Shown here piece by piece: positions 1-64,000 of a stretch of 64,000 nt of DNA. The stretch spans positions 64,001-128,000 of the forward strand of contig CAXXVO010000008.1 in assembly GCA_963422645.2 (NCBI GenBank), in the 5' to 3' direction. A model generated the notes under the pieces. It saw nothing but the letters and a program-made list of their open reading frames with translations, was not told the origin of the DNA and ran no database searches. Each line of letters begins with the position of its first letter. Within the stretch, counting starts at the first letter, position 1. The stretch is from Alphaproteobacteria bacterium (GTDB lineage: Bacteria; Pseudomonadota; Alphaproteobacteria; UBA828). The position numbers and the translations under genes were made by a program.

Positions 1-1241
1 CCAAGCACTTCGTCTCGCGCGAGAAGCTGTGCCTGCCGGCGAGCGCCAGCTACTGGATCAACGCTCTGGGCGGCAAGCCGCTGCTCTGTCTGCACAAGCC
101 GCTGGACCCGAAGATGGTCGCGGCCATCGAAGCCGACGTGGTGCCGGCGCTGCAGGAGCTTGGGATCGTTGGCGCCGGGGCGCCGGACCTGACCGCCGAG
201 CATCCCGGCCAGCCGGCGCTCACCCTGGTCTTCGACCGCGAGGGCTGGAGCCCGGATCTGTTCCGCCGGCTGGCGAGGCGCGGCGTCGCCTGCCTGACCT
301 GGCACAAGAACTTCAGGGGCGAGGACTGGCCGGCCGAGGACTTCGGCGCGATGACCGTTCCCATTCACGGACCGGCGGCGGACGGCAGCGCCACCATGCG
401 GCTGGCTGAGAAGCCGGTGACGTTGCCGAACGGCTTCAGGGTGCGCCAGATCCGCCGCCTGCTCGACAACGGCCGTCAGGTGCCGCTGATCACCACCGAT
501 CCGCACAAGCCGATGGCTGAGGTTGCGGGCGCCATGTTCTCGCGCTGGTCGCAGGAGAACTTCTTCAAGTACATGCGTGACGAGTTCAATCTCGACGCCC
601 TGCCGACCCACGAGCTCGAGCCTCTCGATCCCGCCGCCATGGTCGTCAACCCGCTGCGGCGGGCCTATGACAAGGCAATCCATCGCCTCGACCGCCAGCT
701 TGGCCGCCTGCGCAACCGCATCGCCGACACGGCCCGGAAGAAGCAGCCGACGGCGGAACTCAGGAGGGAAGTCAGGGACCTCCAGGATGTCCGCGACATC
801 GTCAGGGCCAGCCGCAGGGAGACGCCCAAGCACTGCCGGGCCGGCGACCTCGACGAAGCCGAGCAGCTCGATGCCTTGCCCGCGCGCGAGCGCCTCCTCC
901 TCGACGTCATCCGGATGATCGCCTACCGCGCCGAAACCCGCATGATGCTTCCCGTCATGCAGGCGCAGGGCCACAAGCCCCATCCCCGGAAACTGCTTCA
1001 AGCGCTGCTCACCGCCGATGCCGACATCCTGCCGGATCCTGGCAATGGCCTCCTGCGGGTCCACATTCTTGGCCTCGCAAACGACGCCTGCGACCGTTGG
1101 ATCGATGCGGTTCTGAGCGACCTGAACGCCACCGAAACGGTCTTCCCCGGCACCCGTCTGCGCATAGTCTACGACATCGACGGGGCCTCGGAATCCGCGC
1201 GGCTCGTGTCACCTAAAATCAGCAGAGGTCAGGAAGTCTGA
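1..1241 (+). mobile_element. Right part of an unclassified IS ending ...GGTCAGGAAGTCTGA
   Basis: Contains the transposase ORF. The end is defined by identity with the copies at 61979-62128, which stops exactly after TCTGA. Confidence 0.65.
3..1241 (+). CDS. Putative DDE transposase of an unclassified (ISNCY-like) IS, 5' part outside the window
   Basis: Frame is open from base 3 (KHFVSREKLCLPASASYWINAL...). Motifs VFDREGWS and MFSRWSQENFFKY (RW.QEN.FK, catalytic E). The stop codon coincides with the apparent element end, and the terminal 75 bp recur at 61979-62128. Confidence 0.75.
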   Translation, partial: KHFVSREKLCLPASASYWINALGGKPLLCLHKPLDPKMVAAIEADVVPALQELGIVGAGAPDLTAEHPGQPALTLVFDREGWSPDLFRRLARRGVACLTWHKNFRGEDWPAEDFGAMTVPIHGPAADGSATMRLAEKPVTLPNGFRVRQIRRLLDNGRQVPLITTDPHKPMAEVAGAMFSRWSQENFFKYMRDEFNLDALPTHELEPLDPAAMVVNPLRRAYDKAIHRLDRQLGRLRNRIADTARKKQPTAELRREVRDLQDVRDIVRASRRETPKHCRAGDLDEAEQLDALPARERLLLDVIRMIAYRAETRMMLPVMQAQGHKPHPRKLLQALLTADADILPDPGNGLLRVHILGLANDACDRWIDAVLSDLNATETVFPGTRLRIVYDIDGASESARLVSPKISRGQEV

Positions 1242-58378: not shown

Positions 58379-60350
58379 CCGAACTTCCCCCCGGAAATGG
58401 GCTGATTTTCGGGGCTAAGCCGTTGATCTTACGGGCGTATCGGCCTTCGGCGCAGATGCAAAGTGTACCCATGTAAATGGAGAGAGGTGGTTGATATGAG
58501 GCGGGAGGTGGGCTATGTTCCGTCCCCATGTATATCGAGAGCGTCCCAAACCGGAACTCCCCGCCCGCAATCCTCCTGCGCGAATCATGGCGCGCGGGCG
58601 GAAAAATCAGAAAACGCACCCTGGCCAATCTGTCCAAGTGGCCGCCGCACCTGATCGACGGTCTGCGCATCCTGCTGCGCGGCGGAACCGCAGTGCCCCG
58701 AGGCGAGACGATCCGCGAGCACGACGGCTTCGACATCACCCGCTCGCGTCCCTTCGGCCATGTGGCAGCGGTGCTCGGCGCCCTGCGCGGCCTCGGTCTG
58801 GAACGGCTGATCGGCGCCAGGCGCTCGCGGCTGCGCGATCTCGTGGTGGCCATGATCGTCGCCCGCATCGTGGCGCCGCGCTCGAAGCTCGCCACCGCGC
58901 GCGGGCTCAGCGAGGACACGCTTGGCCACGGCCTCGGCGAGGCGCTCGCCCTGGGCGAGGTCGGCGAAGACGAGCTCTACGAGGCGATGGACTGGCTACT
59001 GCAGCGCCAGCCCAGGATCGAGCGGGGTCTGGCCGAGCGTCATCTCGAGGACGGCGCGCTGGTGCTCTACGACGTCACTTCGACCTGGCTGGAGGGGCGC
59101 TGCTGTCCGCTGGCGCGTCACGGCTACTCCCGCGACGGCAAGCGCGGCAAGCTGCAGATCGTGTTCGGGCTTCTGTGCAACGCGCAGGGCTGCCCGGTGG
59201 CGGTGGAGGTGTTCGAGGGCAACACCGCCGATCCGGCCACACTGGGCACGCAGATCGACAAGCTGCGCCGGCGCTTCCGGCTTTCGCGGGTCGTTCTCGT
59301 GGGCGATCGCGGCATGCTCACCGAGGCGCGCATCCGCGAGGAGGTGAAGCCGGCCGGGCTGGAGTGGATCAGCGCGCTGCGGGCGCCGGCGATCCGCGAG
59401 CTGGCCTCCGGCGGGACGCTGCAGCTCTCGCTCTTCGACGAGCGCGCCCTGGCCGAGATCCATCATCCCGACTTCCCCGGCGAGCGCCTGATCGCCTGCC
59501 GCAACCCGCTGCTCGCCGAAGAGCGCGCGCGCAAGCGCGAGGCCCTGCTCCAGGCCACCGAGAGCGATCTCGACGCGATCCGTGCGGCAACCCGGCGCGA
59601 CAAGCGCCGTCTCGCCGGCAAGGACAAGATCGGGCTGCGCGTGGGCAAGGTCATCGGCAAGCACAAGGTCGGAAAGCACTTCGACCTGGAGATCGCCGAT
59701 GACGGCTTCGCCTGGCGGCGCAACGCAGAGCGGATCGCCGAAGAGGCGGCGCTCGATGGCCTCTACGTCATCCGCACCAGCCTGTCCGAGCGCGAGCTCG
59801 GGGCCGAGGACACGGTGCGCGCCTACAAGGGATTGAGCCGCATCGAGCGCGCCTTCCGAAGCGTCAAGACGGTCGACCTCAAGGTGCGGCCCATCCACCA
59901 CTATCGGCCTGAGCGCGTGCGCGCCCACGTCCTGCTGTGCATGCTCGCCTACCATGTCGAGTGGCACATGCGCCAAAGGCTCGCCCCCATCCTGTTCGAC
60001 GAGGACGACCCGGCGGGCGCGGACGCCGCGCGCGCCTCCATCGTCGCACCGGCAAAGCCCTCGCCTTCGGCCCGGCGCAAGGCCGCCGCCAAGCGCACAC
60101 CAGACGGCGTGCCGGTGCATAGCTTCCGCACCCTCCTCGAAGACCTGGCGACCATCGCCAGGAACAGAGTTCAGCCGAAACTGCCCGGAGCACCGCCCTT
60201 CGACCTGGTCACCAAACCGACGAAGCTGCAGCGCCAGGCGCTCGACCTGCTCGGCGTCAGCCTGTAGCGTACCCAGTACGCGACTCCGCGAAACGGTGCT
60301 TTCCAAAGCAACCGCAATGGCTTAGCTCAATATCCGCTCCGGAAGTTCAG
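58379..60350 (+). mobile_element. IS1634-family element, copy B (1972 bp)
   Basis: TSD TCTAGG at 58373-58378 and 60351-60356; inverted relative to copy A. Confidence 0.92.
58528..60267 (+). CDS. IS1634-family DDE transposase
   Basis: 579 aa, identical to the copy A protein. Confidence 0.92.
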   Translation: MYIESVPNRNSPPAILLRESWRAGGKIRKRTLANLSKWPPHLIDGLRILLRGGTAVPRGETIREHDGFDITRSRPFGHVAAVLGALRGLGLERLIGARRSRLRDLVVAMIVARIVAPRSKLATARGLSEDTLGHGLGEALALGEVGEDELYEAMDWLLQRQPRIERGLAERHLEDGALVLYDVTSTWLEGRCCPLARHGYSRDGKRGKLQIVFGLLCNAQGCPVAVEVFEGNTADPATLGTQIDKLRRRFRLSRVVLVGDRGMLTEARIREEVKPAGLEWISALRAPAIRELASGGTLQLSLFDERALAEIHHPDFPGERLIACRNPLLAEERARKREALLQATESDLDAIRAATRRDKRRLAGKDKIGLRVGKVIGKHKVGKHFDLEIADDGFAWRRNAERIAEEAALDGLYVIRTSLSERELGAEDTVRAYKGLSRIERAFRSVKTVDLKVRPIHHYRPERVRAHVLLCMLAYHVEWHMRQRLAPILFDEDDPAGADAARASIVAPAKPSPSARRKAAAKRTPDGVPVHSFRTLLEDLATIARNRVQPKLPGAPPFDLVTKPTKLQRQALDLLGVSL

Positions 60351-60469: not shown

Positions 60470-61630
60470 TCAGTGGCGCAATTGCCGAGACAGTGGGACG
60501 CCGGCGAGCGTCGACACCAGCCGCACCAGCTCCACCTGCCGGGAGATACCGTGCTTGACGAATATTTTCTGCGTGTGCCACCGGATCGTGCTTTCCCTGC
60601 GTCCCGTTGCAGCTGCGATTTCTCGGGGTGTCCTGCCCTCGGCCAGCATCGCGGCAACCTGGCTTTCCGCAGGCGTAAGATCCAGGGTGGCCATCACGAG
60701 TTCCGGATCGATGCGAGCCTGGATGGCAGGATCCACGATTAGTGCGACCGCAGCGACGTTTCGGGGGCGGAAGTCCATCTCTCCGTCGCCCACGGGGCTC
60801 ACGTGAAGAACGAGTCGCGGCAAGACGGATCGACGCTTCACCAACATCGAAGCGCTCGCACCCTGGCCACCGCCCTGCGGCAGGACTCGTGCCAACAGCC
60901 TCTGCAGATCGTCGGCGGCGGCTGGAGAGCGGGCGTGGAGGAAGCCGCCCCGGTCGAACAACCCATCGCCCTTGCTCAGCAGGTCTCGAGCGGGGTCGTT
61001 GATGGCCACGATTCGTCCGCGTCGGGCCAGTTGGATTACGCCGAATCTGGTGTTGTCGAGCAGCCTGTCGAGGGAGGAGCCCGCGGCCCCCGCATCGGCC
61101 AGCGCCTGGCGGACACGAACGAATTGGCGAATGTGGGGCAATAGACGCCTGATCATGTCGAGCTGATCGGACGACCAGCCGTCAGGGGCGACGGGATCGC
61201 AAATCGACCAGACGATGCGCGAGCCACTCGGCCCATCCAGTCGCACGTCTATTCCGTTCTGACTGCTGCCGAGGGGCAGCGCCTCGTTGTATGCGGCCGA
61301 GGTCTTCCGCTCCCGTTCCGTGTAGAGGTCGGGTACGTGAAAGAGCTTGCTGTCAGGCAGTTTCCTGACGCGCGGTACGCGCTCGTCCCGCGGAAAATAG
61401 TTTTTGAAGTAGTGGCGCTCCAATTCCCTATTGAGTTCCCCGTAAAAGCAAAACCTCTTGTAGTAGATCTCGAAATCGTCCTCAGTACTGCCCTCGGCAA
61501 ACGTCAAGAAATTGCCCTTCGTCCGGCAGAAAGCGTCGATCAGGGCGAAGGTTGGTAACCAGTGGGCATCGTCGAGCATGGCCTCGTGCAGCGATGCCAG
61601 AATGCGATCGAACGCGTCTTGTTTGCTCAT
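60470..61630 (-). CDS. LuxR-type HTH transcriptional regulator with PAS-like domain
   Basis: ATG 61630; LTPAESQVAAMLAEG..PREIA...ESTIRWH..IFVKHGISRQVEL. Confidence 0.85.
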   Translation of the reverse strand: MSKQDAFDRILASLHEAMLDDAHWLPTFALIDAFCRTKGNFLTFAEGSTEDDFEIYYKRFCFYGELNRELERHYFKNYFPRDERVPRVRKLPDSKLFHVPDLYTERERKTSAAYNEALPLGSSQNGIDVRLDGPSGSRIVWSICDPVAPDGWSSDQLDMIRRLLPHIRQFVRVRQALADAGAAGSSLDRLLDNTRFGVIQLARRGRIVAINDPARDLLSKGDGLFDRGGFLHARSPAAADDLQRLLARVLPQGGGQGASASMLVKRRSVLPRLVLHVSPVGDGEMDFRPRNVAAVALIVDPAIQARIDPELVMATLDLTPAESQVAAMLAEGRTPREIAAATGRRESTIRWHTQKIFVKHGISRQVELVRLVSTLAGVPLSRQLRH

Positions 61631-61978
61631 GATGAGCTTGCGACCCTCGTTGTCCCGGTTGCCCCTTGGGCCCAGATCCTCGCTCAGTGACCTCACGCAA
61701 GGCCCTTTGGCGGGACTCAAGAGTCGGTTCTGGCCAGCCGCGCCGGACCTCCATGACAACGGGGCGGCCAGACAGCCAACATTCGCCGCGAAGACGAGCC
61801 CCACCGGGTGGTCCGCTCCGAATAGTAGTTAAACCACAGGCGTAATGCCATATCTGAGATAAGCAATATGTAGTAACTACCCAGGTACCCCGCCGCCAGT
61901 TCTGAGTGCGTGCTGATGTTGCTTGCCGTCGGTGCCGTTTCGCCGTCGGCGCGTCGTTGATCCCCGCTTGACTGTATA

Positions 61979-62128
61979 GTCTACGACATCGACGGGGCCT
62001 CGGAATCCGCGCGGCTCGTGTCACCTAAAATCAGCAGAGGTCAGGAAGTCTGAGTCTACGACATCGACGGGGCCTCGGAATCCGCGCGGCTCGTGTCACC
62101 TAAAATCAGCAGAGGTCAGGAAGTCTGA
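61979..62128 (+). repeat. Two exact tandem 75-bp units, each identical to 1167-1241
   Basis: GTCTACGACATCG...GGTCAGGAAGTCTGA at 61979-62053 and 62054-62128. Confidence 0.97.
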
Positions 62129-62174
62129 GGTTCTCTCGCCTATGGGTTGCACTCTCGCATGAGAGGAGCAGCCG

Positions 62175-62843
62175 GTGGGGTATTTCGGGTCGAAGGCGAC
62201 GACCGGTCTGAGCCAGGCGCTGATTGCGCTGATGCCGCGGCACTCTGTCTATATCGAGAGCCATCTTGGGGGCGGGGCGCTGATGAAGCGCAAGCCTGCG
62301 GCCATGCGCTCGATCGGGATCGACCGCGACGAGCGGGCGCTTGAGGCCTTTGGCTGCGACTACCCGGTGGAGTTGGTGCCCGGCTGCGCCCATTCCTTCC
62401 TGGCCTCGTTCCCGTTTCTGGGCCCGGAGCTGGTCTACAGCGATCCGCCCTATCTGCACGCGACCCGGCGTTCGTCGCAGCGCTACCGCTTCGAGTACGA
62501 GGAGGCCGACCACGTCGCGCTCCTCGAACTGCTCAAGGGTCTGCCCTGCCAGGTGATGGTCTCGGGCCACCCGTCTGCGCTCTATGACGAGCTGCTGGCG
62601 GGCTGGCGCCGGCTGGCGCTGCAGGTGACGACCCAGGCCCAGGTGCGGACCGAGGTCGTGTGGTTCAACTTCGTGCCTGACCGGGTGCACTGGGCGAGCT
62701 TCGCCGGCCGGAACTTCACCGAGCGCCAGTGCATCAAGCGCAAGGCGGCCAACTGGGGCCGGCGCTACGAGGCCATGCCGGCGGGCGAACGCCTGGCGGT
62801 GCTGGCCGCGATCATGGCCGTCGAGGCCGACGAGGGTTCGTGA
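62175..62843 (+). CDS. Small D12/Dam-like (alpha-class) DNA adenine methyltransferase
   Basis: RBS GAGAGGAG; YFGSK, YIESHLGGGA (SAM binding), YSDPPY (catalytic), EVVWFNF. Confidence 0.85.
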   Translation: MGYFGSKATTGLSQALIALMPRHSVYIESHLGGGALMKRKPAAMRSIGIDRDERALEAFGCDYPVELVPGCAHSFLASFPFLGPELVYSDPPYLHATRRSSQRYRFEYEEADHVALLELLKGLPCQVMVSGHPSALYDELLAGWRRLALQVTTQAQVRTEVVWFNFVPDRVHWASFAGRNFTERQCIKRKAANWGRRYEAMPAGERLAVLAAIMAVEADEGS

Positions 62844-64000
62844 CAGTGTCGCGCTGGCACGAGGACCTCGCTGCCCACGACGAGGCCTTCGCGTGCCTGC
62901 AGGACCTTTTCACCCCACAATCCTTCGCAATGACCGCCGTCAAAGCCATTCGGGAATGGGGCCAGGGGTTGCTGCGCCTGAGCGCGGCCCTGGTCAAGGA
63001 GAACGACGCGCTGGAGCGGGAGAACGCCCGCTTGCGCGAGCGGATCGCCGAACTCGAGCGCAGCGCCGCGCTCGACAGCACCACCAGCTCCAAGCCGCCG
63101 GCCAGCGACGGTCTGAAGAAGAAGAGCGGTGACCGGGAGAAGCGCACCCGGAGCCAGCGCGGCAAGTCCGACAGGCCCAGTGGCGGCCAGCCGGGCCACA
63201 AGGGAACTACCCTGGAGCGGACCGCGACGCCCGACCATGTCGTCGATCATGATCCGTCCGCCTGTGAGGGCTGCGGCGCGCCGCTGTCGGACGCTGACCG
63301 TCACGGAGCCCCCGTCTGCCGGCAGGTCTTCGATGTGCCCGAGCCGCAGCCCCTCGAGGTCACCGAACATCGCGGCCATCGTTGCCTCTGCGCTGCCTGC
63401 GGCACCGTGACGACAGCCGTCTTCCCGAACGGCGTGAGCGCACCGGTCCAATACGGGCCGCGCATCACCGCGTGGGTGACCTACCTGCTGCACGCTCAGT
63501 TCATTCCCGAGAAGCGGGTCGCCGAGGTCATGAGCGACCTCTTCGCGGTCAAGCTCTCAACAGCCACCATCGTCGCCATGGGAAGGCGCACCGCCCGGCG
63601 CTTCGAGGGCTTCCTCGATCGCCTCGCGGAGATCATCCGCACCGCAGCCCCAGTCAAACACCTCGACGAGACCGGCATCCGCATCGCCGCCCGGACCCAT
63701 TGGCTCCATGTGCTGTGCACCCCGTTGCTCACCATCCTGCGCGTCGCCACCGGGCGCAGCCACATCGACGAGAAGCTCAACGGCATCGTCATCCATGACG
63801 ACTACGCCACCTACTTCGCTCTCGAGGGCGTGCGCCACGGGGCCTGCAACGCCCATCACCTGCGCGAGCTCCAAGCCCTCATCGAGATCGAGAAGGAAGA
63901 CTGGGCAACGAGCACGCACCGGCTCCTCATCCGTGCCAACAGAGCCGCCCGCTTCGCCCACAAGAACGACCGCGACGTGCCCGCCTCACTGGTGGCCCGC
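62840..64000 (+). CDS. IS66 transposase, unbroken as far as visible, 3' part outside the window
   Basis: GTG overlaps the MTase stop (GTGA). A single frame carries SSKPPASDG, C..C motifs, KHLDETG and CNAHHLRELQAL. Absent from the ORF track because it runs off the edge. Confidence 0.88.
   Translation, partial: MTVSRWHEDLAAHDEAFACLQDLFTPQSFAMTAVKAIREWGQGLLRLSAALVKENDALERENARLRERIAELERSAALDSTTSSKPPASDGLKKKSGDREKRTRSQRGKSDRPSGGQPGHKGTTLERTATPDHVVDHDPSACEGCGAPLSDADRHGAPVCRQVFDVPEPQPLEVTEHRGHRCLCAACGTVTTAVFPNGVSAPVQYGPRITAWVTYLLHAQFIPEKRVAEVMSDLFAVKLSTATIVAMGRRTARRFEGFLDRLAEIIRTAAPVKHLDETGIRIAARTHWLHVLCTPLLTILRVATGRSHIDEKLNGIVIHDDYATYFALEGVRHGACNAHHLRELQALIEIEKEDWATSTHRLLIRANRAARFAHKNDRDVPASLVAR

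Follow-up and report, generated by a model that had tools for sequence, protein, structure and literature searches.

Tandem insertion-sequence ends in the leader of an IS66-MTase element, a probable deletion relic at a transposition hot spot

Genomes rich in insertion sequences (ISs) contain incomplete IS copies, solitary ends and insertions nested in one another. In the 64,000-nucleotide stretch analysed here (the window, C9:64001-128000 of genome G000), the 75-bp end of one IS is present twice, head to tail, in front of the DNA methyltransferase (MTase) gene of an IS66-type element, and nothing else of that IS accompanies it. How did an end come to be there twice without its element? The feature is real and more than chance, yet it is an ordinary kind of scar with a neat cause for its tandem form, and the scar itself changes little. 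We consider it probable that the 150 bp are a deletion relic of a multi-ended copy of the source element, called ISX here, at a hot spot inside the IS66-MTase element. Like a partial IS, the fragment is identical to one IS end, occupies a bona fide target and lies in an IS-crowded genome; unlike one, it is a perfect tandem of two ends, with a period set by an internal self-target. The case is of use for the annotation of IS-rich genomes and as a caution against over-reading tandem IS ends.

Table 1. Coordinates of the features discussed, in window positions
Feature	Position	Strand	Remarks
Full ISX copy C9:62727-65241, right-hand 1241 bp	1..1241	+	last 75 bp equal the unit
IS66-MTase left arm, terminus GTAACTACCC to insertion site, 105 bp	61873..61978	+	homology among copies starts at query position 473 (window 61873)
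TTGACT, proposed -35	61968..61973	+	present
ATAG microhomology, left junction	61976..61979	+	common to the IS66-MTase site (tgtATAGgtt) and to ISX immediately ahead of the unit (gcgcATAGtct)
Unit 1, ISX right-end copy (final 75 bp)	61979..62053	+	100% identical to 1167-1241 and to unit 2
Unit 2, second ISX right-end copy	62054..62128	+	adjoins the intact right-hand target copy
AGGTT, sole remaining 5-bp target copy at the hot spot	62128..62132	+	from comparison of occupied and empty copies
TATGGG, proposed -10	62141..62146	+	present; lacks T at position 6
Dam-like DNA methyltransferase ORF, 222 aa	62175..62843	+	weak TIGR00571 dam match (E 3.2e-6, below cut-off); no Pfam match
IS66-family transposase ORF	62729..64000	+	DDE_Tnp_IS66, DUF6444, zf-IS66; extends past the window

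The doubled unit and its host element

Tandem Repeats Finder reported a single 75-bp array, at 61978-62129 (period 75, 2.0 copies, 100% matches). The 75-mer from 61979-62053 matched at 100% at C9:125979-126053, C9:126054-126128 and C9:65167-65241, the last being window 1167-1241, which confirms the original prediction that the two units are identical to each other and to the end of an IS 61 kb away. Read in AGTCT phase, unit 1 occupies 61978-62052. Alignment to an IS66-MTase element without the insert gives it a length of exactly 150 bp and shows no other difference, and within C9:120000-130000 there was no ISX sequence beyond the two units, as had also been predicted. Upstream of the IS66-MTase element, the window carries a 579-aa ORF for a DDE_Tnp_1 (IS4-type) transposase (58528-60267, + strand) and an ORF of 444 aa whose C-terminus has a LuxR/GerE HTH domain (60470-61804, - strand).

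The insert lies 105 bp inside the IS66-MTase element, at tgtat/AGGTT/ctctc (site T). Counting left arms by an exact 17-mer anchor gave 32, of which 19 are empty at T, 11 carry ISX there, one carries a related IS and one the 150-bp insert. An empty site, for which the original prediction suggested comparing other copies, is found in 19/32 left arms, where ...TTGACTGTATAGGTTCTCTCGCCTATGGG... runs uninterrupted; the 150-bp array is confined to 1/32. The ISX copies at T stand left end first, in the orientation of the units, in eight cases and inverted in three. Since ISX sits there in 11/32 left arms, T is a strong ISX hot spot, and about a third of the copies of one IS have been hit by another IS at one site.

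The IS66-MTase element, whose MTase gene precedes that of the IS66 transposase, has about 85 related copies in G000. Identity reaches 99% or more in about 36 left arms, and a second subfamily of about 50 copies, at 83% identity, shares homology from the TATGGG region onwards. At three of the occupied T sites (C15:208186, C19:162842 and C10:211138) the left-arm target copy has GAT or GCT instead of GGT; the right-side copy at those three, and all 19 empty sites, read GGT.

The two junctions of the insert differ in kind. Empty copies read tgtatAGGTTctc at T, and full insertions read tgtatAGGT-TCAGAC...GTCTGA-GGTTctc, whereas the 150-bp insert reads tgtat, two units, AGGTTctc, the left AGGTT copy expected from a normal insertion being absent. 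The right junction of the units, GTCTG/AGGTT, is the same as in full ISX insertions at T. Comparison with those insertions thus identifies it as a normal ISX-to-target junction from which the body and the left duplication copy are gone. The ATAG microhomology predicted at the left junction is present; that both sequences contain it is no surprise, each being an A-NNN-T target set among similar bases. What remains has the make-up of an IS-end relic: one IS end is matched, the rest of the IS is absent, the target is genuine and the other duplication copy is gone. The units have neither a left repeat nor a target duplication and are therefore not a mini-element of the MITE or mini-IS kind. Nor do they resemble a repeat-spacer or guide RNA array, consisting of two abutting identical units without spacers and without an Rfam match at E up to 1.

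The original prediction placed the units between the -35 and -10 of a sigma70 promoter that their removal would restore. Removal does restore TTGACT-N17-TATGGG, which matches 8/12 consensus positions, but a sigma-70 consensus scan (two hexamers, 16-18 nt spacing) found no promoter-like site in either the empty copy or the window region, so the phrase "between -35 and -10" is conjecture. What is certain of the insert, as of each of the 11 full ISX copies at T, is that it splits the leader of the MTase and transposase genes at least 28 bp upstream of the MTase start. The suggestion that one element silences another stands as far as disruption is an effect of ISX lying at this site in 11/32 left arms, although the promoter itself is unproven; disruption of the IS66-MTase element by ISX follows from the target preference of ISX.

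ISX and its target rule

The 75-mer is the right end of a high-copy 2.5-kb insertion sequence. ISX measures 2515 bp in the numbering used here and has perfect 17-bp terminal repeats (TCAGACTTCCTGACCTC). Its ORF matches Pfam PF21804 (Transposase_29; E 3e-72, profile positions 136-560) and has N-terminal HTH domains. No named NCBIfam IS model scored above its curated cut-off, with sub-threshold matches in the HTH region to IS630, IS481 and ISNCY models. Searched against a large protein collection, the transposase gave at least 890 matches at E <= 0.001 (8000 candidates scored), PF21804 being present in all 120 homologues among the matches listed; tblastn against plasmids returned no match. ISX combines a transposase domain, terminal inverted repeats, target duplication and multiple copies, as an insertion sequence does. 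For PF21804 in G000, this is a first sequence-level account of the ends, A-NNN-T target, duplication and self-target of an uncharacterised transposase family.

G000 contains 67 full-length ISX copies. The genome-wide search with the 75-mer found 107 right-end sites (94 with one exact unit, six with two, one with three and six with a one-mismatch variant unit), so that unit number varies from 1 to 3. The source named in the original prediction, although identical in sequence, is accordingly not a single distant copy. The unit takes in the final 24 codons of the ISX transposase together with its stop codon.

Several features of the ISX population can be recorded here. An intact open frame of about 793 codons is present in only 10/67 full-length copies, an intact 785-aa ORF occurs in some copies, and the copy entering the window is frameshifted. 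Copy length ranges from 2512 to 2517 bp, mainly through an indel hot spot at about 1194-1198 (ctggcagGCGccg) and a GG indel at about 145. A 1025-bp form in which 1-832 is joined to 2320-2515 occurs in eight copies with both ends (for example, C3:205689-206713) and looks like a non-autonomous mobile derivative.

The target of ISX is A-NNN-T, which is duplicated on insertion. Matching flanks were found around 34/67 full copies, and in 34/34 of these the three duplicated bases are preceded by A and followed by T; likewise, A is the next base after 240/240 ISX end 16-mers in G000. Two descriptions fit the G000 data equally, a 5-bp duplication with termini CAGAC...GTCTG and a 3-bp duplication with termini T...A. 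ISX-related elements in the related genome G011 favour the former. The next base after 18 of their ends is A (9), G (6) or C (3), and four related elements have clean 5-bp duplications (CATTT, CAATG, AGTCT and AACTT). Because of these ends and duplications, ISX is better described as having termini CAGAC...GTCTG and duplicating 5 bp of consensus A-NNN-T, the 3-bp alternative being disfavoured by relatives duplicating CATTT and CAATG.

In the 5-bp reading the target completes the ISX stop codon, since the TGA (window 1239-1241, and every ISX right end) consists of the last two bases of the element, TG, and the A that begins the duplicated target. Some G011 ends of ISX relatives have C or G as the next base. 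G011 also holds two elements of about 263 bp (C3:590403-590665 and C3:3022297-3022559) with ISX-like terminal repeats and 5-bp duplications (AGTCT and CAATG), which look like MITE-like relatives of ISX.

Nested insertion and tandem right ends

The tandem form has its source in ISX itself, which carries a perfect target of its own, cgcat-AGTCT-acgac; the A of AGTCT precedes the final base of the element by 75 bp. A second ISX entering the AGTCT of a host ISX would leave the left part of the host, then the guest, then AGTCT with the last 70 bp of the host; direct nesting of this kind would place two right ends head to tail with a 75-bp period. Ten ISX bodies in G000 stop exactly at position 2444, and in every case a further ISX end comes next (nine direct, one inverted). 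The built-in AGTCT thus nests ISX copies in each other's tails and gives rise to multi-ended elements.

Tandem right ends occur at six loci besides 61979-62128, on C16, C8 (with three units), C5, C3, C9 (at 638 kb) and C22. The left part of the host is kept upstream at the first five and was not found upstream of the C22 locus. Outer 5-bp duplications match around the whole structure at 3/6 loci (AGGTT, AAGCT and AACCT) and do not match at the other three, which recombination among more than 100 ISX copies likely explains. The three-ended structure, at C8:174448-179555, is the only one in G000. In G011, a 90%-identical element has two identical 75-bp units joined as GTCTG/GGTCT, the junction predicted for a nested insertion with duplication GGTCT; it is an independent case in a diverged copy.

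Some apparent solo units proved to be something else. At C12:106495, C18:197280 and C9:306669 the left flank is formed by the end of a different high-copy IS (74-83 genome matches) inserted beside the unit, and 91-bp fragments at C3:190077, C21:16383 and C21:19021 were excluded on the same ground. At C5:290323 and C5:633822 the insertion is nested in inverted orientation.

A comparable habit is described for IS30, which uses both hot spots and sites beside its own inverted repeats as targets; the resulting dimers have abutted ends and undergo further rearrangement, as outlined in PMC9333248. On that outline ISX is similar in preferring sites made by or inside its own copies, in having three abutted end-to-end junctions and in its rearrangement-prone tandems. 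It differs in that the self-target is an ordinary consensus site in the coding tail rather than a matter of terminal-repeat recognition, and in spacing, duplication length and transposase family. The three abutted ISX pairs (C7:73470-73506, C8:321760-321796 and C8:359781-359817) have only one target copy between the ends, with spacers GTC, ACA and GGT between T...A termini.

Loss of the ISX body and other readings

On the reading that we prefer, a doubly or triply ended ISX would have stood at T, 105 bp inside the IS66-MTase element, and later loss of the ISX body together with the left target copy would have left tgtat, two units and AGGTT. No full ISX precursor of the IS66-MTase copy at C9:125.9 kb was seen, and 0/6 of the other tandem loci lie at a T site; the past body at 61979-62128 is therefore inferred rather than observed, as is the manner of its loss. 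What the data do show is the target rule, the hot spot and the origin of tandem ends by nesting. The original prediction had proposed an IS insertion followed by microhomology deletion and duplication, which comes close to this sequence of events, except that the duplication most likely came first, by ISX nesting, and not later at the locus.

Three candidate routes would each yield the observed joint, and none is singled out. A two-ended ISX could have lost 2443 bp by slippage between its two ATAG copies. Alternatively, the transposase could have cleaved a three-ended ISX at an inner right end, the flanks being rejoined through AG; this route needs a three-ended parent, of which G000 has a single example. 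Finally, the 3' end of the donor flank, freed when one IS end attacks beside the other during copy-out, might have undergone strand switching or ligation. Body-less right-end relics were found at three places (61979-62128, C15:295518-295592 and C3:180513-180585), all starting within 0-3 nt of the expected inner ISX right-end stop, and these start points would favour a break at the inner right end. At C15 the left flank comes from inside another repeat, and 5/5 other copies of that repeat continue differently. Counting against the relic explanation, the left breakpoint at C15 is not at an A-NNN-T site.

Other ways of losing the body were considered. Among homologous-recombination routes to the body-less form, none was found by which tgtat would come to abut AGTCT. 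A 72-bp pseudo-element (TACGAC...GTCTGA) was rejected as the inserted unit, since it would give GGT, not GTC, at the left. Neither Ku (PF02735) nor Prim-Pol (PF09250) domains were found in the 99.6%-complete G000, and classical end joining and an IEE-type helper are thus without support.

The order of events could have been the reverse, with a single 75-bp relic formed first and then doubled locally by replication slippage or unequal exchange. Unit number does range from 1 to 3 across G000, and an AGTCT-phase unit followed by AG gives a 2-nt repeat at the unit borders, but so short a repeat is weak support for slippage. Nested insertion, by contrast, is documented as the tandem source at 5/6 other loci and accounts for the exact 75-bp period in the diverged G011 relative as well, and we regard local doubling as unlikely. 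We give still less credence to direct integration at T of DNA made of ends only, either a concatemer or a 75-bp circle formed by autointegration at AGTCT. An excised ISX attacking its own AGTCT would be expected to give such a circle, with a joint equal to the unit-unit junction, and the insert does lack a left target duplication. Yet units without the left inverted repeat could not insert normally, the right junction is that of ISX with its target at a site used 11 times by full ISX, and a 75-bp double-stranded circle would be physically strained. The unit-unit junction pattern also had no match in public genomes, in a scan that may omit the genome of the window and very near ones. The minicircle or concatemer integration raised in the original prediction accordingly gained no positive evidence.

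About equally doubtful is an extension of this idea, in which autointegration at AGTCT or use of a pseudo-end would free a 75-bp module as a transposase product, the module would be reinserted without duplication and the array would damp one or both elements. If this were true, an array of transposase-binding sites would sit in the leader of a competing IS66-type element. An array selected for function, whether as a transposase-binding decoy or as a guide-like leader controlling the IS66-MTase element, is the least probable reading of all. Each unit does contain the full 17-bp terminal repeat, presumably a transposase-binding site, and the array lies upstream of the MTase gene. It is nevertheless the sole such copy among 32 left arms, has no spacers and no RNA family match, and its structure is wholly explained as a by-product of transposition; the decoy or guide array put forward in the original prediction is not borne out. 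An assembly artefact, the repeat having been collapsed or mis-joined, is very improbable too. The region does lie between high-copy repeats, but 67 full 2.5-kb ISX copies are resolved inside contigs, and no errors appear in either unit or either flank on comparison with their families. The left junction, moreover, joins non-homologous sequence via only 4 nt, which collapse would not make.

As a deletion relic, the 150-bp insert has its nearest counterparts among known systems in the ISApl1 and IS30 cases, a general literature search (in which the IS family was not searched by name) having turned up nothing closer. Loss of ISApl1 from Tn6330, the mcr-1 transposon, is outlined as proceeding by deletions between 2-4 bp microhomologies, near IS length, for which a model of IS excision by strand switching, in copy-out-paste-in elements, has been proposed (bioRxiv 10.1101/2023.06.07.543989). 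In both cases, on that outline, the IS body vanishes from its site to leave an immobile scar, with the joint falling in a microhomology of 2-4 bp beside the IS ends. The donor-flank 3' end model, as sketched in the same preprint, would predict the junction seen at 61979-62128. The ISX transposase belongs to another family and might work by copy-out or by cut-out, and no IEE-like Prim-Pol domain was found in G000. Unlike at ISApl1 sites, 150 bp of the ISX end remain, because ISX had extra right ends.
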